64,000 bases of DNA, from assembly GCA_963663275.1 (NCBI GenBank), contig OY760183.1, positions 3,072,001 to 3,136,000 of the forward strand, given 5' to 3'. This DNA is from Chloroflexota bacterium (lineage in GTDB: Bacteria; Chloroflexota; UBA11872; VXOZ01). Under the pieces are notes generated by a model. That model was not told where the DNA came from. It ran no database searches and saw only the letters and a list, made by a program, of their open reading frames with translations. Within the stretch, counting starts at the first letter, position 1, and every line of letters begins with the position of its first letter. Both the position numbers and the translations under genes were made by a program. Positions 17,909 through 31,951 of the stretch are shown here, in pieces.

Positions 17909-19297
17909 ATGATACGGCTAACCGACGCGCAGATGCGCGACTTCATTCGCAACGGGTTTGTCGCGATTAAGACCGGGCTTTCCCGCGAAGAGAATCAAGA
18001 CATCTGGAACCAGACGGAGGCTCTCTTCGAAGAGGACGGCAACCCCGGCAACAACCTGATGGCCAGAATCCCCGCCATTCGGCAGGTACTCGACGATCCG
18101 AAAGTGGACGGCGCATTGTCCGGCGTGCTGGGCAACAACTACTTCATTCACCCGCACCGCCACTGCCATTACCGGCCGCCCCACAGCGAGGGTCAGCAAA
18201 TCCACCGGGACTCCTTCACCCGGCGACGCCACCGCACCCGCTGGCTGCTGGCCATGTACTACCCGCAGGATACCACCGTCGAAATGGGCCCGACCGGCGT
18301 GCTGCCGGGCACGCACTACTTCAACTGGCTGGTAGGCCCGATCGGCCTCAACATGCGCCTGGACACCACCGAGGGCGAGGTGCCGGTGGTGGTGGAAGCC
18401 GGGACCATCCTGATGGTCCACTACGACCTCTGGCACCGGGGCATGGGCAACACCACGGACAAGAAACGTTACATGATGAAGTTCATGTTCGCCCGCATGG
18501 AAGAGCCGCGGGAGCCGAGTTGGGACAGCAGCGACAGCGAGTGGATTGCCGAGGACGATAGCGGCCTGAACGGCGTGTGGAGCCATATGTGGCGCTGGTA
18601 CACCGGCGCGGCCAACAACGGCGCGTCGTCCGCCAATGGCAACGGCGCCGGCTCGATACCGGAACTGATTGCGAACCTCAAGGTTGACGACGAAGCCACC
18701 TGCCTGGCGTCCGCCTACCAGCTTGGCTCAATGGGCGAGGCCGCCGTGCCCGCGTTGATCGATACGCTCCAGCACGAAAATGAAGCCGTGCGCCGCAACG
18801 CCAGTTACGCTCTGAGCGACATCGGCGCCGCGGCCGTGCCCGCCCTGCTGGACGCCAGCCGGGACGACAACGTGGATACGCGCATCATGGCGGTAGAGAC
18901 GTTGGCCGACCTGGGCTTTCTCGGCGATGAGGTCATGCCGTATCTCCGCGTGGCGCTGGAGGATGAATCAATTGAGGTGCGCCGCCATACGGTGGACGCG
19001 CTGGGCATCTGCATGCAGCATTCCGACAACGGCGTGCCGGCCCTGGCCGAAGCCCTCGGCGATGAGGACGAATTCATGCGCCGGGGCGCGGCGCTTGCCC
19101 TCTGCCGCATCGGCGCGCAGGCGGAAGAAGCGACGCCCGCCCTCGCCCAGGCCCTCAACGATGAAAATCGCTACGTGCGCGGCAAGGCCGTCCACGCCCT
19201 GCGCCGCATCGGCACACCCGAGGCCCAGGACGCCCTGGTGCACTTCCTGCTAACCTCCCAATGGTGCTACTCCACCACCAAGGATAGCCTGTACTAG
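17909..19297 (+). CDS. PhyH-family Fe(II)/2-oxoglutarate dioxygenase fused to HEAT repeats
   Basis: HRD...GPTGVLPGTH...LWHRG..N...RYM; C-terminal repeats AVPAL...VRRNA..AL. Confidence 0.85.
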   Translation: MIRLTDAQMRDFIRNGFVAIKTGLSREENQDIWNQTEALFEEDGNPGNNLMARIPAIRQVLDDPKVDGALSGVLGNNYFIHPHRHCHYRPPHSEGQQIHRDSFTRRRHRTRWLLAMYYPQDTTVEMGPTGVLPGTHYFNWLVGPIGLNMRLDTTEGEVPVVVEAGTILMVHYDLWHRGMGNTTDKKRYMMKFMFARMEEPREPSWDSSDSEWIAEDDSGLNGVWSHMWRWYTGAANNGASSANGNGAGSIPELIANLKVDDEATCLASAYQLGSMGEAAVPALIDTLQHENEAVRRNASYALSDIGAAAVPALLDASRDDNVDTRIMAVETLADLGFLGDEVMPYLRVALEDESIEVRRHTVDALGICMQHSDNGVPALAEALGDEDEFMRRGAALALCRIGAQAEEATPALAQALNDENRYVRGKAVHALRRIGTPEAQDALVHFLLTSQWCYSTTKDSLY

Positions 19298-19357: not shown

Positions 19358-19412
19358 CCCATGGGTGGACAACCAGTATCACACAGATGGCGGTCATTGC
19401 CGACAGGAGGGC

Positions 19413-20576
19413 ATGATGGCGCAATACCACGACGCAGAATCAGGCATCAGCTTGGACAACGAGTTCGAGTGCGCCAGTGCGCGGGCGTTCAGCAAGCTCG
19501 GCCCCGGGCATTACCAGGTCGAGTTGCTCATCGAAAACTACAGCCCGGACTACCCGGTCGTCTGGGAGTACATGTTCTGCTTCCGGGTGCGGTCGCAGTC
19601 AGACCAAGCGCAAACGGTGACGTTTCGCGTCATGCAGGGGCGCGGCGGCATCAGCTACTTGGACGGGCCGCACTTCACAAAGCGCAATGGCAAGTGGGAC
19701 CTGGTGCCCCGCTGCCAGACGGAAATGAGCAAAGACTACGTCGAAGTCACGCTCGACGTGGCAGCAGGCGACGAGTTTCTGCTCGGCAACCATCCGTTCC
19801 CTACTCCTGCAGAGGTGGAGTCCGCGATGCACGCCACCGCGGCAGCGTTGGACGACTTTTCTGTGCGCGAATACGGACGCACACCGGAGGATCGTCCGCT
19901 TCTGGCGCTGGAGAGCCAGCCCCGCGACAAGACCGTTATCGTCTTCACCACCATGCAACCGGCCGAGCCGGGCGACGTGCCTATCCTATTCCTGGCTCAT
20001 TGGCTCAGCAGCCGATCGGCAGAGGCGGAGAGACTACTGGCAGAGTACCAGTTCTGCCTCATGCCAATGACGAACCCGGATGGGGCCGTACACGGTCATT
20101 CGGTAACCAACGCCGCCGGCGAGGTGCCGCGCTGCCACTTCGAGGACGCCAAATTGGGTAAGGACGTTCCCGCCGAGGCCGCCGTCATTTGGAAATACGT
20201 GGCGGAAAAGAAACCCACCATGTTCATCGAATTTCACATTCATTACCTCGTACACGCCCCGCACAAGCTAGTTGGCGTCCACGTAAACGAGCCCTCGGAT
20301 GAACGGGGTGTCGTTGCCCTGCCTGCGGCTACGGTCCTCTGGGGCGAAATGCTCAAACTCAACAGCCACTGGCGGGCGCGTCTCATCGAGGCCGAGAGCG
20401 AGACGTTCCGCAATGCCTTGGACGGAACGCTGGCGCGGGACTTCGGCACTCTTGCTTATGTCTATCAAATCTACGCTCCCACCGTGGAGGCCGCCTGCGC
20501 TCATGCCGTGGACGTGGTGCGCGCGACGGTGAACGGAGCGCAAGCAGCCGCCGCGCTCAATCTTCGCAACGCCTGA
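19413..20576 (+). CDS. M14 zinc-carboxypeptidase-fold protein with an atypical active site
   Basis: YGRTPEDRPL, PMTNPDG, IEFH; HxxE position reads QPAE; start after GGAGG. Confidence 0.7.
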   Translation: MMAQYHDAESGISLDNEFECASARAFSKLGPGHYQVELLIENYSPDYPVVWEYMFCFRVRSQSDQAQTVTFRVMQGRGGISYLDGPHFTKRNGKWDLVPRCQTEMSKDYVEVTLDVAAGDEFLLGNHPFPTPAEVESAMHATAAALDDFSVREYGRTPEDRPLLALESQPRDKTVIVFTTMQPAEPGDVPILFLAHWLSSRSAEAERLLAEYQFCLMPMTNPDGAVHGHSVTNAAGEVPRCHFEDAKLGKDVPAEAAVIWKYVAEKKPTMFIEFHIHYLVHAPHKLVGVHVNEPSDERGVVALPAATVLWGEMLKLNSHWRARLIEAESETFRNALDGTLARDFGTLAYVYQIYAPTVEAACAHAVDVVRATVNGAQAAAALNLRNA

Positions 20577-20833: not shown

Positions 20834-22270
20834 ATGGTAATTCGCAATCGTCATCTCACCCGTAGGAGTGTCCTTGCCGGTCTTGCCGGGTCGCTGAGCA
20901 TCGTAGCGGCTGCCGCGTGCGCACAGGGAGTCGCGACAGAGATGCCGGCGGAAGAAGAGAAGCCTGCCGAGGAGCCCAAGCAGGCCGAAGAAGCGCCCGC
21001 GATGGAGATGGTAACGGTGCGCGCCGGTTGGATTTCCAACGATGCCGCGGTGATCGAGCCATTCTACGGCGATCTGCTCGTCGCCAGCTTCGAAGAGGCT
21101 CATCCGAACATCAAGGTGGAGTGGGAAGGCGCGCCGGCCAGAGAACACCATGCCAAACTCGCGACCCAGTTGGCGGCCAACGAAGCGCCGGACGTGTTCC
21201 ATAGCGACGGCGTCCGCTATGCGCTCTTCCGCGATTCCGGTTACATCAACGACCTCGCGCCCTTCTTGAAGCGGGACGCCGGTACGCTGCAAGGCGTAAT
21301 CGGCCCGGAATTCTTCCGCGATCCCGACGGCAGCACGTGGGGTATTTCCAGCAGCATCGGCGGCGTCGCCACGGCCTTCAACACGGCGCACTTCGATAAA
21401 TTTGGTGTCAACCGGCTGCCGGAGAACGGCATAAACTGGAATCCCACCGACGGCGGGGAGTTCCTGGAAATAGCCCAAGAACTCACCCAGCGCGGCAGCA
21501 CCGAGGCGGACCCGGTGTGGGGCTTCTTCAACAACAAGCAGATTACGGGCGACGTGCTGAGCCTGCTGGTGCAAAACGGCACGAATTTCCTCACTGACGA
21601 CTACCGCCGTTCGCGCATCCACGAGCCGGAATTCATGGAAGTGGTGGAATTTCTGCACAACCTGGAGTTCAAGTGGCAAGTATCGCCCAACCCCGACCAA
21701 GTAGCGCTGTTGCGCGAGGCCATACCTGAAGGGCAGACCTACCACGCGCCGTTTGCATTTCAGCGGACGGCGATGATGAACCTGCTCATGGGCCAGTCCG
21801 GCCGCTGGGGCGGCCCTGATCCGGAAAGCTTGCCAATTGTGGCCGTGAAGTTCCTGAACGGGCCCCAGAACGACAAGGTGCCAAGCGGGGGGCGCGTCAT
21901 GGAGCATTGGGGCAGTTCACAACAGCCCGATGAAGCCTGGGACCTCATGCGCTTCTTCCTGACCGATCACGAGGTGAATATCGCGACCTTTACTATTCTG
22001 AAGTCCGGTTTGCCGCCCAACACGAACTTCTGGGATGACGAACGCCTCTACGTGAAGGCCGGCCGCCCGCCACGCGAGATCGAGGCCTATATGGCCACGC
22101 TGCGCGAGGGCAAGGGTTACTACTGGCAGGTGAACGGCGTCTGGAGCGCCTGGATTGGGGCATACCGCTCCGGCCAGGCTGCGATATGGGCCGGCGAAGC
22201 CAAGGTAGAGGAGGCCATGCAGCAAGCCAGCAAGGAGGCCCAAGCGGCCTTAGACGAGTATTACGGGTAA
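20834..22270 (+). CDS. ABC solute-binding lipoprotein (family 1, carbohydrate type), paralog 1
   Basis: TRRSVL twin-arginine signal, AAAC lipobox, APDVF. Confidence 0.88.
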   Translation: MVIRNRHLTRRSVLAGLAGSLSIVAAAACAQGVATEMPAEEEKPAEEPKQAEEAPAMEMVTVRAGWISNDAAVIEPFYGDLLVASFEEAHPNIKVEWEGAPAREHHAKLATQLAANEAPDVFHSDGVRYALFRDSGYINDLAPFLKRDAGTLQGVIGPEFFRDPDGSTWGISSSIGGVATAFNTAHFDKFGVNRLPENGINWNPTDGGEFLEIAQELTQRGSTEADPVWGFFNNKQITGDVLSLLVQNGTNFLTDDYRRSRIHEPEFMEVVEFLHNLEFKWQVSPNPDQVALLREAIPEGQTYHAPFAFQRTAMMNLLMGQSGRWGGPDPESLPIVAVKFLNGPQNDKVPSGGRVMEHWGSSQQPDEAWDLMRFFLTDHEVNIATFTILKSGLPPNTNFWDDERLYVKAGRPPREIEAYMATLREGKGYYWQVNGVWSAWIGAYRSGQAAIWAGEAKVEEAMQQASKEAQAALDEYYG

Positions 22271-22320: not shown

Positions 22321-22357
22321 ATACACGCCGCTTCTCGCTATGAGAAGCGGCGTGTAT
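22321..22357. terminator. Hairpin between convergent genes, probable terminator
   Basis: Perfect 16-bp stem ATACACGCCGCTTCTC / GAGAAGCGGCGTGTAT with a 5-nt loop. Confidence 0.65.
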
Positions 22358-22431: not shown

Positions 22432-23838
22432 CTACGGTACTGCCGCCTGGGCCGCGGCCCCTGCCGCCAAGCGTACGTCCGCCCGGAAGAACAGCGCACC
22501 TGCTTGCCTCTGTTGCTCAGAGAGTTGGCCGCGCGGATCGCAGACCACTACCACGCTCTCCTTGCCCTCCGGTATGCGGAAGGGAACTTCGCAATCCGAC
22601 TCTTCCCGCCCAACAACCAAAGGCACGAGCGCGTGGCCGAGTTGCACGCCGCCGCCTTCATCGAGCGGCCCATCGAAGACCATCACCGCCGCCTCGCGCG
22701 CGTCGATTACGCCTCTATTCGCCAAAGTGACTCGCACACGACCGATCTCTCGCTCTAATGCGGAAACCTCAACGGCGGCAATTTCGAGCTCGCACTCCAC
22801 GCGGTCAACCGCCACGGCGGCGCGCGCGTCGATGAGGCCGTGTCCAAGAAACGGATTCCAGCCGGAACCGGCGGGCTGGTACGCCGTGTTGCGCATCACC
22901 ATCCGCACCTCGTCCGCGGTCAGGCCCGGCTGCCGCGACCACACCAAGGCCGCAAGAGCCGACACGTGCGGAATCGCCATGCAGCCGCCGGACCACTCCA
23001 CGTAGCCGCCGTGCGCGCCGGAAATCGTGCTCAGTGTCCCGTAGGGCGCCTGCGGATGCGCGCCCAGCGCCGCCGCCATCACGCCCTCCTCCGCCAGCGG
23101 CAGGATGCGCCGCCCGGGGTCGTTTTCCAGGTCGTAGGCGCGCCAGCCGGACGGTGCCGCCACCTCGGTCAGGTCGCCGTAGTCGCTGAAGTCCGCCATG
23201 CGGCCGCTATTGTCGGCGGAGGCCACGTTCACCACGCCCGGACAAAGCGCCGGGTACTTGGCCACGTTGTGCGCCTGGTTGCCGCCGGTGGCGTTCACGA
23301 TCAGCACGTTGTGCCGCTGCGCATACAGGCACGCCTCCAGCAGATCCTCGGCGTGCGGCGGCGTCCAGGCGCTGAAGATCGTCGGCAGGCCGTGCTTGAC
23401 GGTGTACATGTAGCCCACGTCGCTCAGGTTGATCACCCGCGCGCCGTTGTCCACCGCAAACCGGATGCCCCGCGCAATCTCCGCATCATCGTACGTATTT
23501 ACCCGCACCGGCAGGATGCGGCACTCCGGCGCGACCCCGGCGATGCCGACGCCGTTATCGGCGCGCGCGGCGATGATGCCGCTGACGTGCGTGCCGTGGT
23601 CGGTAGAATCCTTGTGCTTGCGGGGCCGCGAGGTGTCGTCCAGGCTGTCGTCATCGTCCCACAGGTCCCAACCCGGCAGGAACTGTCCCGCCAGGTCCGG
23701 ATGCCCCACGTCTATGCCCTTCTCGATGACCGCCACCACCACGTCCGGGCTGCCGCGCGTCACCTCCCACGCCGAAGGTGCATTGATGAGTTGCAGCCCC
23801 CACTGGTGGCGAAAGAGCGGATCGTTCAGAGGTACCAT
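22432..23838 (-). CDS. Subtilisin (S8)-fold protein with a Glu-His-Cys triad and a C-terminal CARDB/Ig-like domain
   Basis: VAVIEKGID, DHGTHVSGIIAA, GIAGVAP, VINLS, GGN, YPA, SGGCMAIPHVSALAAL; ATG after GGGAGG. Confidence 0.88.
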   Translation of the reverse strand: MVPLNDPLFRHQWGLQLINAPSAWEVTRGSPDVVVAVIEKGIDVGHPDLAGQFLPGWDLWDDDDSLDDTSRPRKHKDSTDHGTHVSGIIAARADNGVGIAGVAPECRILPVRVNTYDDAEIARGIRFAVDNGARVINLSDVGYMYTVKHGLPTIFSAWTPPHAEDLLEACLYAQRHNVLIVNATGGNQAHNVAKYPALCPGVVNVASADNSGRMADFSDYGDLTEVAAPSGWRAYDLENDPGRRILPLAEEGVMAAALGAHPQAPYGTLSTISGAHGGYVEWSGGCMAIPHVSALAALVWSRQPGLTADEVRMVMRNTAYQPAGSGWNPFLGHGLIDARAAVAVDRVECELEIAAVEVSALEREIGRVRVTLANRGVIDAREAAVMVFDGPLDEGGGVQLGHALVPLVVGREESDCEVPFRIPEGKESVVVVCDPRGQLSEQQRQAGALFFRADVRLAAGAAAQAAVP

Positions 23839-24164
23839 CGTCTCGTTCCTCCCGGCTCCAGGCTCCGCCCGCTTTGCGGGGCGTGCCTCTCCGCCTGTGC
23901 GATACGTATTGCATTCACTATGTAACGCCAACGGCACGATGTCAATTGATGCAAAGGGCCGCTCACTCGGTTGACTTGACTACTAAGCCTCGCATAGTAC
24001 ACTATCAGCAGAGAGGATTGCAGTATTGCAGAATGCCTCGGATTCTCGTATGAAAGGAGGTTGAGGCGCATACAACGGCAATTCTGCGTTAGTGTGGCTG
24101 GCGTACGTCTCTCACTGTACGCTTGGCCGCAAAACCAGACACATTCATCCAGTAGGGGGAAGAG

Positions 24165-25592
24165 ATGACGATTACTCGACGACGCATGTTGGCTGGTACC
24201 GGCGGGGTGCTGGGCGCAATCGCGCTGGCGGCCTGCGGCACAGCCATGCCGGCGGGCGACGGTGACGCGCCGGAGAAGATGGAAGAAGCGCCCAAGGCCG
24301 AAGAACAGAAGCCAATGGAGAAGGTCACCGTATCGGTACGGTGGATTTCCAACGACCTCACCCTGGTCGAGCCGTTCTACGAGAATCTCGTTGTGGCGCG
24401 ATTCTACGAGAACTACGACAACATCGAGCTTGATTGGGTGGGCGACACGTACCGCGACACCATGAGCCAGCTCAATACGCAGTTGGCCGCCGGTGACGCG
24501 CCGGACGTATTCCACAACGACGGCGTGTTCTTTGCACGCAACCGCGATGTTGGCTACATTCGCTCGCTGACCGAGTACACCAAGCGCGATGGCGCACAAC
24601 TCGAGGGCATTCGCGGTCCGGAGTTCTTCAGTGATGAGAAGCAGGACGTGTATGGCGTCTCCATGGGTGTTGGTTGCGCGGCCTTAGCCTACAACACCGA
24701 CATCTTCGACCGCTACGGCATCAACCGCTTGCCGCCTGAAGGCATTGATTGGAATCCGGGCGACGGCGGCACGTTGCTGGAAATTGCCTCCGACATAACT
24801 GCCAAGGGTCAGAACGAAGATCCCAGGATCTGGGGATGGTTCAATAACAAGCAGGCCACTTTCGACATTCTTGGCATGCTGCTTCAAAACGGCACAAACT
24901 TCCTTTCCGATGACTATCGCCGTTCGAGAGCGCACGAGGCAGAGTTCATTGACGTTATCCAGTTCCTGTGGGACTTGGAGTTCAAACATCGGGTCGCGCC
25001 AGATCCCGATGAACGCGCTGAGTTCAACGCTTCGATTCCTGAGGGCACGACGTATCATGGCCCGTTCGCCTGGCAGCGGTCAGCCATGATGAACCTCGGC
25101 CTTGGCCAGTCCGGTTCCTGGGGTTCGCCTGAACCGGAAAAACTGCCGATCGAAGCGGTACAGTACATCCAGGGCCCGGCAAATAACAAGGTGCCCGGTG
25201 GCGGACGCGTAGTCGAGATGTGGGGCAGCACCGAGGTGCCCGACGAGGCCTGGGAAGTGATGAAGTTCCCCTTGGTCGACCATGAGATTCAGGTGGGGGT
25301 CTTCTCGATCCTGCGCGACGGCTTGCCGGCCAACACCAACACGTGGGACGATCCGCGACTGCTTGAGAAGAGTGGTCGACCGCCGCGTGAGGTGGAAGCG
25401 TACATGGCCCCGCTTAGGGAAGGTCGTGGCCAGTATTGGCAAGTTAATGGCGTGTGGCTGGAATGGTGGCGCGCATTCCGTGGCAACATGAACCGCGCTT
25501 GGGCACTAGAGGTCACCGTCGAGGAAGCCATGCAGCAAGCAAGCAAAGAGTCGCAGGCTGTCCTGGACGAGTACTACGCCAGCCAGGACTAG
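24165..25592 (+). CDS. ABC solute-binding lipoprotein (family 1), paralog 2
   Basis: TRRRML signal, LAAC lipobox; colinear similarity to 20834-22270. Confidence 0.88.
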   Translation: MTITRRRMLAGTGGVLGAIALAACGTAMPAGDGDAPEKMEEAPKAEEQKPMEKVTVSVRWISNDLTLVEPFYENLVVARFYENYDNIELDWVGDTYRDTMSQLNTQLAAGDAPDVFHNDGVFFARNRDVGYIRSLTEYTKRDGAQLEGIRGPEFFSDEKQDVYGVSMGVGCAALAYNTDIFDRYGINRLPPEGIDWNPGDGGTLLEIASDITAKGQNEDPRIWGWFNNKQATFDILGMLLQNGTNFLSDDYRRSRAHEAEFIDVIQFLWDLEFKHRVAPDPDERAEFNASIPEGTTYHGPFAWQRSAMMNLGLGQSGSWGSPEPEKLPIEAVQYIQGPANNKVPGGGRVVEMWGSTEVPDEAWEVMKFPLVDHEIQVGVFSILRDGLPANTNTWDDPRLLEKSGRPPREVEAYMAPLREGRGQYWQVNGVWLEWWRAFRGNMNRAWALEVTVEEAMQQASKESQAVLDEYYASQD

Positions 25593-25866: not shown

Positions 25867-26580
25867 GTGACGCCTCTCCTTACCGCACTCATCGCGTTCG
25901 GTGCCGGCATCGCCTCGTTTCTCTCGCCGTGCGTGTTGCCGCTGGTGCCGGCCTACATCGGCCACCTGGCCGGCACGAGTGTGTCGGAAGAGCAAGACGC
26001 CCAGGCAACCATGCGTACGGTCGCCCACGCCGCGTTCTTCGTGCTGGGCTTCTCGGCCGTCTTTGTGCTGCTATGGGCGTCAATCGGCCTTTTGGGCTAT
26101 GCCATTCAGGGATATACCTACTACCTGCGCTACGCCGGCGGGGCGATTCTCGTCGTCTTGGGTCTGCACGTTGCCGGAATATTTCGCCTGCGTTGGCTCA
26201 ATCAGGAGCGGCGCGTCTACGTTGACCGCGGCCGCCCCCGGAACTTTCTCACCTCATGGCTCGTGGGCATAACTTTCGCCGCCGGGTGGACGCCCTGTGT
26301 CGGCCCGATTCTCGCCGGCATCATCGCCCTTGCCTCAACGCGCGACACGGTCGGCCAGGGCTCGCTGCTCCTGGCCCTCTACTCCGCCGGTCTCGGCATC
26401 CCGTTCCTGCTGACGGCCATCGGCCTCTCGCGCGCCGTCCCCATTCTGCGCTGGATGAACCGCCACGCCCACACGGTCGAGGTGGCCAGCGGCGGCCTGC
26501 TCATCGTCATCGGCGTCATGATGTTCATGAACACCTTCGCCCAACTCGCCCGCTACTTCACCTGGATACCGGTGTTCTAG
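25867..26580 (+). CDS. ccdA: Cytochrome c biogenesis CcdA / DsbD transmembrane protein
   Basis: SFLSPCVLPLVPAY, WTPCVGPIL, YSAGLGIPF. Confidence 0.9.
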   Translation: MTPLLTALIAFGAGIASFLSPCVLPLVPAYIGHLAGTSVSEEQDAQATMRTVAHAAFFVLGFSAVFVLLWASIGLLGYAIQGYTYYLRYAGGAILVVLGLHVAGIFRLRWLNQERRVYVDRGRPRNFLTSWLVGITFAAGWTPCVGPILAGIIALASTRDTVGQGSLLLALYSAGLGIPFLLTAIGLSRAVPILRWMNRHAHTVEVASGGLLIVIGVMMFMNTFAQLARYFTWIPVF

Positions 26581-27179: not shown

Positions 27180-29963
27180 TCACGGCACCCGATAGACCTC
27201 CGCCGCCGGCTTCACCGGGCGCGGCATCCACAGCGGCCGCCGCAGCGCGTTGCTGCCCTCCGCCGGACGCGCTTTCTTCAGCCACTCAAGATACACTTCA
27301 TGCGACTTATTGGTATCCACGAACACGTCGCCGTACTGGTCGTCGGCCGCCGCCGTCTCCACCCGCACCTTCTGGTGCCAGCAGTGCATACCGCTCACCG
27401 GGTCCGGATGCACCGGGAACGTCAGATTCTGGTGCACGCCCGAATCTTTCCACCACACCCGGTCGGAATCCGGATCCGGGCTCTCGAACGGCCCCACGCC
27501 TTCGATCTGGCGCATGAACCACTGCCCGTCCTTCACTTGCTTCAAATCCACGTGCGCAGTAGACCAGCGTTCGCCGCCGCTCTCCTTGGAAAGCCGCCAG
27601 CGTCCCAGGTGGTGGGAGCACGCCACGATGCCCGGGCGAATGCCCTCCGTCACCCACACCCGTATCACAAAGTGCCCGATCTCCGTACAAACCCTGGCAA
27701 GGTCGCCCGTATCGAACTCCAGGCGTTCCGCGTCCTGCGGGTGCACCCACAGCGGATTGGTATGCGAAATCTCATAGAGCCACTTGGCGTTGCCCGCCCG
27801 CGTGTGGATGAGCGTCGGCAGGCGGAACGTCGGCAGCAGCACGTACTCGCCCTTGCCGTGGTCGATGTTCTCCCGGTGCACGTGGCTCTTGATGTACGTC
27901 GGCACGGCGTATTCCGACCACTTGAAGTCCCGCAGCGTTTCGGAGAAGAACTCCAGCTTGCGCGACGGCGTATGGAACCCTTCCACCGCCGTTCCGTCCA
28001 CCTCCACGCCGATCACCTCGCCGTTGCTGCTCACCTTGCCGCTTTCAGGATCGACCTCCGCGCCGTCCAACTCCTCGGCGGTCAAGGGATTCTCATGCAC
28101 CGCGTAGGTATCGCGCTTCACCTCGAACGCGCCGTACTTGCGCATGTACGCCAGCGGCGCAAGTTCCTCTTTGGCCGCCGCTTCCGGCAGACCCGGCACA
28201 CTGTTTTCGAATATCCACTGGTAGTATTCGCTGATGGTCAGCTTCTCACCGGGGCGGTAGGGCGACTCGAAGAACTCCCGCACGCCCAGGCTGCCGTCCG
28301 GGTCGATGCGCCACGAAAGCTCGATCCAGAATTCGTCCTCTTCCCACACCTCGCCGGGATTGGCCTCGTAGGTGAACTCGACAGCGTCGCCGTTCTTCTC
28401 GCGCGCCACCCGCATCACCGGCTGGCGGAACGCGATCCACGCGCCCGCCTGGGTCTCCTGGCTCATCAGGTCGTGCCGTTCCGCGCCGTTGCCCATGGGC
28501 AGCACGTAGTCCGCGAACCAGGCCGTTTCGCTCCACACCGGCGTCAGCGCGGCGTGCACGCCAATCTTTGCTTCATCGCTCAGCATCTCAATCCAGGAGG
28601 CCCCGTCGGGATTCGTCCACACCGGGTTGTAGACGCGAGTAAAGTAGGTATCCACTTTGCCGCGCCCCTCTTTGAGGAAGTGCGGCAGCAGAATGCTCAT
28701 CTCGTGGTGCGCCAGCGGATACTCGCGCGGCCACAGGAGTTCGCTCCACACCTGCTGCGGCGGCGGCTTGATGTACGGCGCGGGGGCGAATTTATTCCAA
28801 CTGTTCGGGGACGTGCCGCCGCGCGTGCCGATGCTGCCGGTCAACACGCCGAGGAACGTCAAACAGCGCGAGACCTGCCAACCGCCTTCATTGCCGGAGG
28901 CCGCGCTGCGCCACACGTGGCTGGCAAACGCCGTGCCCGCCCTGGCGATCTCCCGCGCCACCGCGACGATCTGGGCGGCTTCCACGCCGCTCTCCTGCTC
29001 GGCAAATTCCGGCGTGTACGCGGCGTAGAAATCCTTGATAGCGTCAATGAAGTTATCGAACGTGGCCTCCACGTCCGGGTGCTCGCTGCGCATGAACTGC
29101 TGCCAGTTGAGCCACTTCTCCATGAAGTCGCGGTTATAGCTTTCTTCCCGCAGGATGACGTTCGCCATAGCCAGCAAAATCGCCGGTTCCGAGCCGGGCC
29201 ACGACGAGAGCCAGTAGTCCGCCCGCGAGGCGGTGTTGGAGAGGCGCGTGTCGATAACGGCAATCTTCGCGCCGGCGAGTTTGCCCTCGACGATGCGCTG
29301 GGCATGGGGATTGAAATAGTGTCCCGTCTCCAGGTGGGCGCTGATGAGCAGCATGAAGCGGGAATTCGCGTGGTCGGGCGAGGGCCGGTCCGCTCCCTGC
29401 CAGAGGGTGTAGCCCAGCCGCGCGGCGGAGGAACAGACGTTCGTATGGCTGTTGTGGCCGTCCACGCCCCAAGCCTGGAGCACCCGGTCCATGTAGCCGT
29501 CGTGGCCGGGACGCCCCACGTGGTACATCACTTCCGTGCGGCGGTCTTCCTGCAAGGCCGTGCGAATGCGCGCCGCGAGCGTGTCGAGCACCTCATCCCA
29601 GGTGGTGCGTTCCCACTCGCCGGAGCCGCGCGGCCCGCTGCGCTTCATGGGGTAGAGGATGCGCTCCGGGTCGTGCACCTGGTTGATCGTGGCCGGGCCT
29701 TTGGCGCAGTTGCGGCCCCGGCTGCCGGGATGCGCCGGATTGCCCTCGAACTTGCGGATGCGCATGTCCTCTTTGTCGATGTACGCCAGCAGCCCGCACG
29801 CGGCCTCGCAGTTGAAGCAGACCGTCGGCACCAACATGTAGTTCTTGGAGACGCGCTTCGGCCATGCTTCCGGGTCGTACTCGGTCCAATCGTCCCACTG
29901 GTCTACCGGCGGATAGTTCGCCAGTTGGCCCGATTCCGGAAACTGTGGCTTGAAAATCGACAT
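27180..29963 (-). CDS. Mo/W-bisPGD (DMSO reductase superfamily) catalytic subunit, Psr/Ttr/Arx-like, no Tat signal
   Basis: CFNCEAAC...CAKG FS0 motif, RILYPMKR, SHTNVCS, SETAWFADYVLP, C-terminal VHPQDA binding domain. Confidence 0.9.
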   Translation of the reverse strand: MSIFKPQFPESGQLANYPPVDQWDDWTEYDPEAWPKRVSKNYMLVPTVCFNCEAACGLLAYIDKEDMRIRKFEGNPAHPGSRGRNCAKGPATINQVHDPERILYPMKRSGPRGSGEWERTTWDEVLDTLAARIRTALQEDRRTEVMYHVGRPGHDGYMDRVLQAWGVDGHNSHTNVCSSAARLGYTLWQGADRPSPDHANSRFMLLISAHLETGHYFNPHAQRIVEGKLAGAKIAVIDTRLSNTASRADYWLSSWPGSEPAILLAMANVILREESYNRDFMEKWLNWQQFMRSEHPDVEATFDNFIDAIKDFYAAYTPEFAEQESGVEAAQIVAVAREIARAGTAFASHVWRSAASGNEGGWQVSRCLTFLGVLTGSIGTRGGTSPNSWNKFAPAPYIKPPPQQVWSELLWPREYPLAHHEMSILLPHFLKEGRGKVDTYFTRVYNPVWTNPDGASWIEMLSDEAKIGVHAALTPVWSETAWFADYVLPMGNGAERHDLMSQETQAGAWIAFRQPVMRVAREKNGDAVEFTYEANPGEVWEEDEFWIELSWRIDPDGSLGVREFFESPYRPGEKLTISEYYQWIFENSVPGLPEAAAKEELAPLAYMRKYGAFEVKRDTYAVHENPLTAEELDGAEVDPESGKVSSNGEVIGVEVDGTAVEGFHTPSRKLEFFSETLRDFKWSEYAVPTYIKSHVHRENIDHGKGEYVLLPTFRLPTLIHTRAGNAKWLYEISHTNPLWVHPQDAERLEFDTGDLARVCTEIGHFVIRVWVTEGIRPGIVACSHHLGRWRLSKESGGERWSTAHVDLKQVKDGQWFMRQIEGVGPFESPDPDSDRVWWKDSGVHQNLTFPVHPDPVSGMHCWHQKVRVETAAADDQYGDVFVDTNKSHEVYLEWLKKARPAEGSNALRRPLWMPRPVKPAAEVYRVP

Positions 29964-30060
29964 CGCGCCGTAGCTCCTCTCGCTAAGCGCCCGGACCTGG
30001 TTAACGTGAAACCGCTAACGCGCACTCAATCTCTGTCAAAATAACCGTATCCATTCAAAC

Positions 30061-30262
30061 CGTAGCGCGGGGGCTCGTCCCCCGCCTCCTGGCCTGCCAA
30101 TGCGCGCCCAAATGTCACCCATCTCTATCGCGTAGCGCGGGAGCTTGTCCCCCGCCTCTTGGCCTGCCATTGCGCGCTCATCTATCCCCTATCATCACGT
30201 AGCGCGGGGGCTCGTCCCCCGCCTCTCATCTCACGTAGCGCGGGGGCTCGTCCCCCGCCTCT
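30061..30262 (+). repeat. Four tandem GTAG-type REPs (GTAGCGCGGGGGCTYGTCCCCCGC)
   Basis: Copies at 30062, 30132, 30199, 30235. Confidence 0.9.
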
Positions 30263-30274
30263 TGAACAACGCGC

Positions 30275-31864
30275 TTAACTCAACGGCTCTGCCTGTCCCG
30301 CTCGCACCCAAATATCCTCAAAGAGCAACAATCCCGCCAAGGCGCACGCCCCGGCCGCGATGGCCGCCACCGGCGCCAGCCCCAACGGTATGGCGAGCAG
30401 CAGCGCCACCGGCGCCGCGTGCCCCACACCGACCACCCCGGCCCAGAAACGCTGGGCGAACCGGCCGCGCACGATCATCCGCACGGCTGCGGCCGCGTCG
30501 CGCGTGCCGTGGGGCAGCCAGAGTTCGCCCACCACGATGATGAAGAGGTTGGCGATCAGACTCCACAGCAGCACGGTGCGCAGAAACTCCTCGGTCTGCG
30601 CCGTCGTCTCCACCACCGACCCCAGTATCGCCAGCGACGCCGCGCCCGCCAACGCCGCCTGCACCAGCAGGTGCACCGGCAACGCGGGGCTCAGCCACAG
30701 GTCGCGCGCTTTCGATTGCGCAAAGAGAAAACCGGTGTAGATCGCGGCGAGAATAGCTAAGACGCCGCCCGGCCACCAGAGTATCCGCATCAAGCCGTCC
30801 GCGCCCGTGAGCGCCGCTAGTATGCTCAAGCCGACGAATGCGCCGAAAAACAGCAAGATGAACGTGCCAAGCGCGACCCACGAGCGCCACTGCGGACGGA
30901 TGAGAATGGTGTAGAAGCGGTCGGGGCGCTTGAGGTCCCAGATCAACAAGCCCGCCGTGATCGCCAGGAATATCAGCGCCAGAATGGGGCCGCCCCACGC
31001 CAAGAGCGGGTTATCGCTCACCAGGCCCAGCGCCAAGCCCGCCGCCGGCAGCAGAAACGCGCCCGCGGCGATAGATTTCGTCCAGATGTACGCGCTCACC
31101 TTCCAGCCCCAGGGCGAGGGATGCTCCACGTCGTAGACCGTCTTGGCGGACTTGGCTACCAGGTCCTGCAGCAAGGTTTCACTGTCTATGAGGCCGGACG
31201 CGCCGTTGCCGTTGGCGCTGCCGTTCCCGTTGGCGTTGGCGTTTGCGTTGGCGTTCGGCATCTCGTTCCAGATGCCGTACTCACCGGCCGGCGTCGCCGC
31301 CGACGGGGTGAGCGTGCTCTCGTCGGCGTCGATGTAGAAGAGCTTGGGCACCGTGCCTTTCTCCGGCTTGCGCACCTGCACCGGCTCCCGCGAGATAAGC
31401 TGGGAGATATGGGCCGTCGGGTCGTCCAAGTCGCCGGAGACAATGGCCTGCGTCGGGCAGACCACCTGGCACGAAGGTTCCAATCCGACCTCTACCCGGT
31501 GCGCGCAGAAGTTGCACTTCGCGGCGGTGTGCGTATCGGGATCGATGTGCAGCGCGTCGTACGGACAGGCCTGCAAACACATCTTGCAGCCAATGCACCG
31601 CTCAGGATCGAAGTCCACGATGCCGTCCTGCGTGCGGCGGTACAACGCCGTCACCGGACACGCCGTGATACAGGGCGCGTCGTCGCAGTGGTTGCAGCGG
31701 AGCACCGTAAAGTGGCGGCGGTTATGGGGGAACTGCCCGGTCTCGACGTACTTCACCCAGGTGCGGTAGACGCCCAAAGGCACGTCATGCTCCGACTTGC
31801 ACGCCACCGTACAGGCGTGGCAGCCGATGCACTTGCGATTGTCGATGAGAAAGCCAAGTCTCAT
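30275..31864 (-). CDS. Fusion of a 4x[4Fe-4S] electron-transfer subunit and an NrfD/PsrC membrane anchor
   Basis: CIGCHACTVAC, CNHCDDAPC..CP, CIGCKMCLQACPY, KCNFC; then WGWKVSAYIW, DLKRPDRF, SWVALG and hydrophobic helices. Confidence 0.9.
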   Translation of the reverse strand: MRLGFLIDNRKCIGCHACTVACKSEHDVPLGVYRTWVKYVETGQFPHNRRHFTVLRCNHCDDAPCITACPVTALYRRTQDGIVDFDPERCIGCKMCLQACPYDALHIDPDTHTAAKCNFCAHRVEVGLEPSCQVVCPTQAIVSGDLDDPTAHISQLISREPVQVRKPEKGTVPKLFYIDADESTLTPSAATPAGEYGIWNEMPNANANANANGNGSANGNGASGLIDSETLLQDLVAKSAKTVYDVEHPSPWGWKVSAYIWTKSIAAGAFLLPAAGLALGLVSDNPLLAWGGPILALIFLAITAGLLIWDLKRPDRFYTILIRPQWRSWVALGTFILLFFGAFVGLSILAALTGADGLMRILWWPGGVLAILAAIYTGFLFAQSKARDLWLSPALPVHLLVQAALAGAASLAILGSVVETTAQTEEFLRTVLLWSLIANLFIIVVGELWLPHGTRDAAAAVRMIVRGRFAQRFWAGVVGVGHAAPVALLLAIPLGLAPVAAIAAGACALAGLLLFEDIWVRAGQAEPLS

Positions 31865-31951
31865 GGCTGCTCCTGTGCCTGCGGACCGATTTCCGTTGCC
31901 CAATTATACAATAGCGCCCGCGATGCTACCACCCTGACGCATCCACTGGGT

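Follow-up and report, generated by a model that had tools for sequence, protein, structure and literature searches.

The 64,000-nucleotide stretch analysed here (the window; Chloroflexota bacterium, contig OY760183.1 of assembly GCA_963663275.1, positions 3,072,001 to 3,136,000 of the forward strand) carries on its reverse strand a gene for a subtilase (S8) homologue, P0001, in which a Cys stands at the position of the catalytic Ser and a Glu at that of the catalytic Asp (Table 1). The gene is monocistronic, and is flanked by one convergent and one divergent solute-binding-protein gene. By the family-profile test P0001 is a subtilase homologue: the Pfam model Peptidase_S8 (PF00082) covers residues 32–334 (E 5.7e-44, 151 bits against a cut-off of 21.8), and 152 Protein Data Bank (PDB) sequences match P0001 at E ≤ 0.001, with thermitase (1tec) at the top (E 2.7e-34).

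Table 1. The P0001 gene, its active-site codons, architectural elements and flanking signals (positions in the window).
Feature	Position	Strand	Description
P0001 gene, Cys-type S8 homologue	22432..23838	-	stop included (22435-23838 without stop); 468 aa; ATG at 23838
Glu39, GAG	23722..23724	-	opposite thermitase catalytic Asp; VAVIEKG over IAIVDTG
His81, CAC	23596..23598	-	catalytic His position; DHGTHV over GHGTHC
Asn187, AAC	23278..23280	-	oxyanion-hole Asn position; TGGN(Q) over AAGN
Gly285-Cys286, GGC TGC	22981..22986	-	opposite thermitase Thr-Ser; SGGCMAIPHV over SGTSMATPHV
Pro290, CCG	22969..22971	-	subtilisin Pro225 equivalent; Gly or Ala in many relatives
Insertion 1	23344..23421	-	about residues 140-165; directly after NLS strand
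Insertion 2	23029..23145	-	about residues 232-270; between AAPxG motif and nucleophile
C-terminal domain	22435..22806	-	~124 aa; shared with Asp-His-Cys family
Shine-Dalgarno-like motif, GGAGG	23848..23852	-	9 nt upstream of ATG at 23838
Promoter-like TTGACA-17-CATAGT	23917..23945	-	10/12 consensus positions, consensus match alone; downstream of GTG 23937
16-bp-stem hairpin, possible terminator	22321..22357	-	between convergent solute-binding-protein and S8 genes; no U-run on S8 strand

In the HMMER alignment with thermitase, Cys286 takes the place of the catalytic Ser of the G-T-S-M-A motif and Glu39 that of the catalytic Asp of D-T/S-G, and the His of H-G-T-H (His81) and the oxyanion Asn (Asn187) are both present. 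A preliminary description of this DNA, made from the letters alone, had placed the active-site codons at 23724-23722 (GAG), 23598-23596 (CAC) and 22983-22981 (TGC), where all three are indeed read, and its claim of a Glu-for-Asp and Cys-for-Ser exchange with His, Asn and Pro kept is confirmed by the codons and by the thermitase alignment. We name Asn187 the oxyanion-hole residue after subtilisin Asn155; in subtilisin BPN' numbering, the changes in P0001 read Thr220 to Gly and Asp32 to Glu. The protein contains seven Cys residues in all.

P0001 has neither the signal peptide nor the propeptide of secreted subtilisins and thermitase. Its residue 5 aligns with residue 4 of mature thermitase, and there is therefore no room for either element. 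The acid residue is at position 39 in P0001, and the median distance to it from the N-terminus is 39 residues in Glu-His-Cys proteins, 47 in the Asp-His-Cys proteins described below and 151.5 in canonical S8 proteins (n = 94), and a crude Kyte-Doolittle test finds a signal-peptide-like hydrophobic N-terminus in 0/28, 9/118 and 80/94 of these groups, respectively. The lack of a signal peptide and propeptide, as claimed in the preliminary description, is thus supported by the alignment, the short N-termini and the hydrophobicity test. Insertion 1 (about 23–28 residues) occurs in all Cys-type relatives and in P0132, a Ser-type protein introduced below, and is absent from canonical S8 proteins; insertion 2 has a short form common to all Cys-type relatives and P0132, with ~25 extra residues only in the core Glu-His-Cys clade. 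The Cys-type sequences and P0132 also carry a domain of ~120–135 residues after a G-H-G motif. The corresponding 124-residue domain of P0001 has no match among Pfam families, the sole match being MOLO1 at E 0.3, and a profile of nine such domains finds a single PDB match, 2kut_A, an "uncharacterized protein" (E 8.9e-5). A likeness to CARDB-type beta-sandwiches was considered and rejected, Pfam having given no match.

The two exchanges are shared by a conserved group of proteins. A search of a collection of 5.8 billion proteins yielded 25 proteins at 60–90% identity, the next being at 44% or below. The preliminary description had asked whether any homologue shares the Cys together with the Glu; with the query included, the nucleophile is Cys in 26/26 close homologues, and the acid residue is Glu in all 24 that cover the N-terminus. 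Within the class, 17 of 98 genomes, the window's own included, have a match at E ≤ 1e-60; apart from the window's own, the matches fall in 14 of the 16 other genomes of its genus and in 2 of the 5 genomes of a second genus. These 17 genomes hold 18 copies, in all of which the frame is intact and the Cys286 position is encoded by TGC; the Glu39 codon is GAG in 14 copies and GAA in 4, a synonymous variation, and the position of residue 290 holds Pro in 10, Gly in 7 and Ala in 1. Apparent internal stops in three copies (G083, G093 and G095) were rejected: these proteins are shorter than the query (463–464 aa), and the stops are their own stop codons. Over 105 within-genus pairs, the median nonsynonymous (dN) and synonymous (dS) divergences are 0.098 and 1.11, with a median dN/dS of 0.081; by part, dN/dS is 0.069 for the catalytic domain and 0.098 for the C-terminal domain. 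In an alignment of 12 sequences at 38–84% identity (A3), His81, Asn187 and Cys286 are invariant and Glu39 is found in 11/12.

The same codons are present in independent sequencing runs. Over 22517-23239 and 23242-23752, stretches that include all three triad codons, Logan contigs of run X1 match the window letter for letter, and relatives in runs X2-X4, which come from two further studies (two of the three runs being labelled sponge metagenome), cover the triad codons with no change there among the differences listed, 16 rows lying beyond that list. The preliminary description had proposed a check of the codons in raw reads; they are present in contigs of runs from three studies. In the contigs of relatives, ~195 letters within 22686-22882 (X2) and ~63 letters within 22818-22882 (X4) are swapped for a different stretch of nearly equal length; lying where the catalytic and C-terminal domains meet, it looks like a variable linker segment. 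An error in sequencing or assembly, or a pseudogene that arose recently from an ordinary serine-protease gene, is extremely improbable given the same codons in 18/18 copies from 17 genomes and in the contigs from three studies, the intact frames and the strong purifying selection. The earlier view that the changes reflect selection, not decay, is strongly supported by conservation down to 38% identity, by the GAG/GAA variation and by the low dN/dS.

To place P0001 among more distant proteins, we used the best 150 of 101,634 matches (E ≤ 0.001) from a search of 1.84 billion cluster representatives. Among these 150, P0122, P0123, P0124 and P0126 are full-length Glu-His-Cys proteins at 38–46% identity, P0128 is of an Asp-His-Cys type, and a fragment, P0180, carries the Cys. 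P0132 combines the architecture of the clade with an Asp-His-Ser triad, either of ancestral character or the product of a reversion. P0263 retains the Glu and the His and lacks the oxyanion Asn; its nucleophile column holds Gly, and a Cys stands one residue before it. Among the proteins fetched, Glu at the acid position is confined to the Glu-His-Cys clade and P0263, and in the first protein set none of 293 Ser-type nucleophile motifs has Cys. A profile search with A3 against the 5.8-billion-protein collection revealed no new distant members among the 8000 candidates listed. A scan of species-representative genomes, made with a pattern that sits away from the nucleophile, listed 80 loci: 13 Glu-His-Cys loci labelled "Chloroflexota bacterium", one labelled "Candidatus Zipacnadia" (a class of Armatimonadota), and 66 without Cys in the nucleophile column (60 Thr-Ser, 3 other, 3 not covering the site).

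The genome that contains the window has a second Cys-type S8 gene outside it (G000:C1:1324643-1325998, + strand; also L002:1444-2799 and L109:10644-12002). Its product, P0310 (452 aa), has the motifs VAVIDLG, GHHAF, DNRG and EGGCMASAFG and thus represents an Asp-His-Cys form. A search with P0310 gave 155 proteins at E ≤ 1e-10, and in the family formed by P0310 and the best 120 of these (47–87% identical) the Gly-Gly-Cys-Met nucleophile motif and the oxyanion Asn are present in 121/121, the acid Asp in 119/121 (the remaining two being gaps) and the His in 119/121 (one gap, one Pro). The few named members are annotated "S8 family serine peptidase" and come from metagenome-assembled genomes labelled Armatimonadetes, Verrucomicrobia/Verrucomicrobiota, Isosphaeraceae and Anaerolineae. 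Of 401 genomes sampled within the phylum, 13 carry the family, and these belong to the two genera that also have the Glu-His-Cys form; 8 of 80 loci listed in a metagenome scan are true members. In one genome of the second genus (G045), the Asp-His-Cys and Glu-His-Cys genes lie ~15 kb apart in one catabolic island (C1:1451495-1452805 and 1466593-1467981). Compared with P0001, the Asp-His-Cys family shares Gly-Gly-Cys-Met, the oxyanion Asn, the short N-terminus, insertion 1 and a homologous C-terminal domain, and differs in having Asp for Glu, G-H-H-A-F as its His motif, Phe after the Pro225-equivalent site and only ~30% identity. This wider Cys-type group, including the second copy in the same genome, was overlooked in the preliminary description, whose interpretation is supported in part, the functions it suggested (ligase, acyltransferase, esterase or other non-protease enzyme) being candidates; our own census of Cys-type S8 proteins is partial.

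Second-shell changes near the nucleophile run parallel to those made by protein engineering. Of 36 Cys-type motif matches, which include a chance match in P0102 that lies elsewhere than at the nucleophile, 33 have Gly and 3 have His before the nucleophile; Thr precedes it in 281/293 Ser-type motifs. At the Pro225-equivalent position, in counts over the related sequences that make up the first set, Gly or Ala occurs in 13/35 Cys-type and 24/293 Ser-type proteins, with Pro in 259/293 of the latter; among the 26 close homologues, 8 have Gly there and one has Ala, and P0122, P0124 and P0126 have Ala. In the Asp-His-Cys family, Pro does not occur at this site at all (Gly 104, Ala 11, Ser 5, Glu 1, Pro 0; n = 121). 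The same site has been altered in engineered enzymes, where the S221C exchange gives thiol-subtilisin, whose thioester intermediate favours peptide formation, and where P225A relieves the steric crowding caused by the new Cys; besides Ala, only Gly is described in that account as tolerated at 225 in active subtiligase variants (PMC9126251).

We analysed the relationships of 93 catalytic domains in a quick, unrooted maximum-likelihood tree from which the triad, 220 and 225 columns were left out. A single branch, starred in the tree (SH-aLRT 100), separates the 39 canonical rows from all Cys rows, in a tree whose canonical sample consists of nearest matches only and whose Cys group was named after the tree had been seen. 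The 26 Glu-His-Cys rows form one group (support 99) and 24 Asp-His-Cys rows another (support 100); P0128, P0132, P0180 and P0263 branch deep and in no resolved order. The tree needs three changes in the nucleophile column and two in the acid column. Holding the 52 Cys rows as one clade is not rejected (p-AU 0.649), the constrained tree being 12.2 log-likelihood units better, and a single origin of the Cys nucleophile is possible. P0001 shows all the features by which we propose to define a Cys-type S8 clade: G-G/H/N-C, the His, the oxyanion Asn, insertion 1, the C-terminal domain and the absence of a propeptide.

A longer reading frame of P0001 from GTG 23937 was considered and rejected: the extension is not hydrophobic, orthologues begin at the same Met, and both the GGAGG 9 nt before the ATG and the promoter-like site downstream of the GTG contradict that start. 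The upstream open frames of the orthologues differ in length. Downstream, a 136-nt fold that holds the possible terminator hairpin has a z-score of -4.71, none of 200 shuffled sequences being equally stable. The genes on either side (20834-22270 and 24165-25592, both + strand) encode SBP_bac_1 paralogues of about 55–57% identity, both with twin-arginine/lipoprotein-like N-termini; no ABC permease or ATPase gene was recognised beside them among the neighbouring open reading frames scanned. This flanking arrangement is kept in five other genomes of the genus. Further away, 17909-19297 (+) encodes an unusual PhyH-type (phytanoyl-CoA dioxygenase family) fusion with C-terminal HEAT/PBS-lyase-like repeats. 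Downstream of it, on the same strand, follows an M14-like gene (19365-20576) whose product has no obvious signal peptide. On the other side, a DsbD_TM gene (25867-26580) is followed downstream by a pair at 27180-31903 (-), conserved genus-wide, that encodes a molybdopterin oxidoreductase (927 aa) and a fused 4Fe-4S dicluster/NrfD-like membrane protein (542 aa).

Nine gene neighbourhoods were examined: those of the window and of L024, L025, L026, L042, L109, L110, L112 and L115. Genes of the M14 or M24 families occur in 4 of them, PIG-L/CE4 deacetylases in 4, GFO/IDH/MocA oxidoreductases in 5 and parts of ABC transporters in 4, and they look like catabolic, sugar- and amide-processing islands. 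The window locus, with the PhyH-HEAT fusion, the M14-like gene and the two paralogous solute-binding proteins, is conserved across the genus. L024 holds a DegT aminotransferase, two GFO/IDH/MocA genes and a heparinase II/III-like gene; L025, a Glu-His-Cys locus, an M24 gene directly upstream, Amidohydro_2, a sulfotransferase, a solute-binding protein, a CE4 deacetylase and DUF3604; and L026 a solute-binding protein, M14, Amidohydro_2, SDR, GH38-like and GFO/IDH/MocA genes. L109, the locus of the own paralogue P0310, has two DUF3604 genes, an M24/creatinase-like gene directly upstream and a CE4 polysaccharide deacetylase downstream. The M24 protein of L025 is 54% identical to that of L109, and the Glu-His-Cys and Asp-His-Cys subfamilies therefore occur in related loci. 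Among the remaining contigs, L110 contains an AraC regulator, GFO/IDH/MocA, URO-D-like, DUF4962 and isochorismatase genes, L112 a CE4 deacetylase, and L115 GFO/IDH/MocA, two URO-D-like genes and an ABC permease. The URO-D-like genes (uroporphyrinogen decarboxylase family) directly border the Asp-His-Cys S8 gene, at one flank or at both (L115:6931-10564, L110:5007-6050), an unexplained recurrent partner in two metagenome contigs.

The Glu-His-Cys locus from Candidatus Zipacnadia (L042) combines a PIG-L deacetylase, GFO/IDH/MocA and GH123-like genes with an anaerobic sulfatase maturase that carries a C-terminal SEC-C motif and lies directly upstream of the S8 gene (L042:8698-9900, +). Peptide maturation by this radical SAM/SPASM gene, as for a ribosomally synthesised and post-translationally modified peptide (RiPP), was considered and rejected: it scores 413 bits with TIGR03942 against a cut-off of 349, and as an anaerobic sulfatase maturase it is therefore not evidence for peptide maturation. 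The formylglycine motif of sulfatases is Cys-x-Pro-x-Arg; the nucleophile stretch does not fit it, and Cys286 was rejected as a formylglycine target. No RiPP precursor, propeptide or inhibitor gene was recognised in the nine neighbourhoods. A role in a defence system was likewise rejected, with no defence context seen and only a generic PADLOC match, the "subtilase" model hitting P0001 alone (59.7 bits) and not P0310.

That His, acid, oxyanion Asn and Cys have been kept together in two families only ~30% identical is difficult to account for without catalysis, and we therefore read P0001 as an active catalyst. On balance it is probably a functional S8-fold enzyme with Cys286 as nucleophile, a mostly cytoplasmic hydrolase or transferase in nutrient-catabolic loci. 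Residues, conservation, purifying selection, architecture and gene neighbourhoods are observations; from them we infer a triad geometry, an activity, a hydrolytic outcome and a substrate class. Cys286 would pair with His81 as a thiol(ate)-imidazol(ium), with Glu39 orienting His81 in place of the usual Asp, and the side chain of Asn187 would build the oxyanion hole together with the backbone NH of Cys286. Attack of Cys286 on a carbonyl would give a thioester acyl-enzyme, to be resolved by water. Gly285, in place of Thr, and Pro, Gly or Ala at 290 may make space for the larger sulphur, and the two insertions beside the substrate-binding strands, together with the C-terminal domain, would shape the cleft. 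Without a signal peptide or propeptide, P0001 is expected to fold and work in the reducing cytoplasm. It would most likely cleave small nutrients that the cell has imported, such as peptides, glycopeptides or amidated sugars, at an amide or peptide bond, and not act on proteins in general; the catabolic neighbourhoods favour such a hydrolase over a biosynthetic ligase, with which they are nevertheless compatible.

Several observations weigh against this proposal. Engineered thiol-subtilisin is a poor amidase (PMC6642262, PMC9126251), and a simple peptidase role therefore needs compensating changes that work. The motif counts, taken over kin sequences, are not independent. Nine of the 118 Asp-His-Cys proteins have signal-peptide-like N-termini, so that a cytoplasmic location is not universal, and the neighbourhoods are heterogeneous, the neighbours in the window not being operon partners of P0001.

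A different outcome of the same chemistry has to be weighed against hydrolysis. P0001 could be a natural transpeptidase, ligase or acyltransferase, whose thioester is resolved mainly by an amine or another nucleophile and shielded from water by the insertions, a role that we consider unlikely. Combining a Cys nucleophile with Gly or Ala at the Pro225 equivalent mirrors subtiligase, two clade-specific insertions flank the active-site strands, and there is a weak, below-threshold similarity to PatA/PatG cyanobactin proteases (TIGR03895, 57 bits against a cut-off of 421.05). Set against this, P0001 itself keeps Pro290, the contexts are catabolic, the nine neighbourhoods contain no recognised gene for a precursor peptide, a cyclodehydratase or another biosynthetic function, and the lone radical-SAM neighbour, that of L042, is a sulfatase maturase. 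It is doubtful that the Cys-type S8 proteins are nature's own subtiligases, spread across phyla with the second-shell fixes of the engineers (a small residue 225, Thr220 lost), and that the thioester would serve transpeptidation, peptide ligation or cyclisation, or acyl transfer in preference to plain hydrolysis would be a minority outcome in our estimate.

Loss of catalysis would be an alternative of another kind. S8 pseudoproteases exist, as in the Csp proteins of Clostridioides difficile (PMC7200643), and with this precedent, the alteration of both the canonical Asp and the canonical Ser, and a deep relative (P0263) that has lost the Cys register and the oxyanion Asn, P0001 might be a pseudo-enzyme that uses the subtilase fold for binding or regulation, its Cys having no catalytic role. 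We think this quite improbable: a binding role gives no reason for the joint retention of His, Asn and Cys in all or nearly all members, and leaves the co-adapted Gly285 and residue 290, as well as the dN/dS of the catalytic domain, unexplained. Still less probable, indeed very unlikely, is that the Cys serves some other chemistry (sensing redox state or metals, carrying a persulfide or accepting a covalent modification) in an otherwise inactive or differently active scaffold. Cys is versatile, P0001 has several, and a gene for a DsbD-type membrane protein lies 2 kb away; this adjacency holds only within one genus, however, the Cys-x-Pro-x-Arg motif is not matched, and the full hydrolase apparatus of His, acid and oxyanion Asn is retained together with the Cys. 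We retain the proposal of a Cys-nucleophile enzyme, and rate P0001 as a known fold whose catalytic type appears to be new and which is backed by a conserved family.

No description of a natural Cys-nucleophile subtilase was found in the full-text literature, a scope outside which lie subscription journals, MEROPS and InterPro annotations. The subtilase clan is described as serine-type throughout; the available part of a 2022 phylogenetic survey of subtilases names only D-H-S and E-D-S triads (PMC9549277). Subtilisin is the textbook case in which a Ser-to-Cys swap cripples amidase activity and yet underlies engineered peptide ligases. If the natural Cys family works, nucleophile exchange would be shown for the subtilisin fold too, its natural compensating mutations could be compared with six decades of engineering, and propeptide-free cytoplasmic scaffolds would become available for biocatalysis; database annotation would also need correcting, because sources say "S8 family serine peptidase". 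Should the family consist of natural subtiligases, clan SB would turn into one of mixed Ser/Cys type, and ready-made propeptide-free ligase scaffolds would be at hand.

Among known systems, no NCBIfam model is passed by the Cys-type proteins, the best being the mycosin model of type VII secretion (TIGR03921, 207.1 bits against a cut-off of 278.75), and a PDB search found no solved structure closer than canonical or engineered subtilisins. The closest solved relatives are in the thermitase/subtilisin group S8A (1tec, 1thm, 1dbi), which shares with P0001 the PF00082 fold, the order of acid, His, oxyanion Asn and nucleophile, the Met after the nucleophile and the A-x-P-H-V helix start. P0001 differs from thermitase in the change of Asp to Glu and of Thr-Ser to Gly-Cys, in the absence of a signal peptide and propeptide, and in its two insertions and extra C-terminal domain. 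The intracellular subtilisins (2wv7, 2x8j, 7xr8) resemble P0001 as S8 proteins without a signal peptide or classical propeptide (E ~2e-19), but keep Asp-His-Ser and match less well than thermitase; they carry a regulatory N-terminal extension.

A natural precedent for a serine-protease fold working with a Cys-His-Glu/Asp triad is found in the picornain 3C-type cysteine proteases (clan PA), some members of which combine Ser-to-Cys with Asp-to-Glu. Unlike P0001, these enzymes have an unrelated, chymotrypsin-like fold and act in the processing of viral polyproteins. Viral cysteine proteases are homologues of the serine proteases in the trypsin family (PMC6642262). Sedolisins (S53, clan SB) share with P0001 a subtilisin-like fold and an altered triad that includes Glu; theirs is Glu-Asp-Ser, with Glu in place of the His, whereas P0001 keeps the His and has a Cys nucleophile (PMC9549277), and the Glu-Asp-Ser arrangement is not that of P0001. 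A further parallel is man-made. Thiol-subtilisin, which dates to 1966 (references in PMC6642262), and subtiligase (S221C and S221C/P225A of BPN') have, like P0001 with its Cys286, a Cys nucleophile in a subtilisin fold, and the Ala of subtiligase at 225 recurs as Ala or Gly in relatives of P0001. P0001, by contrast, is natural, has Pro290 where subtiligase has the small residue, and adds to the fold its insertions and a C-terminal domain.

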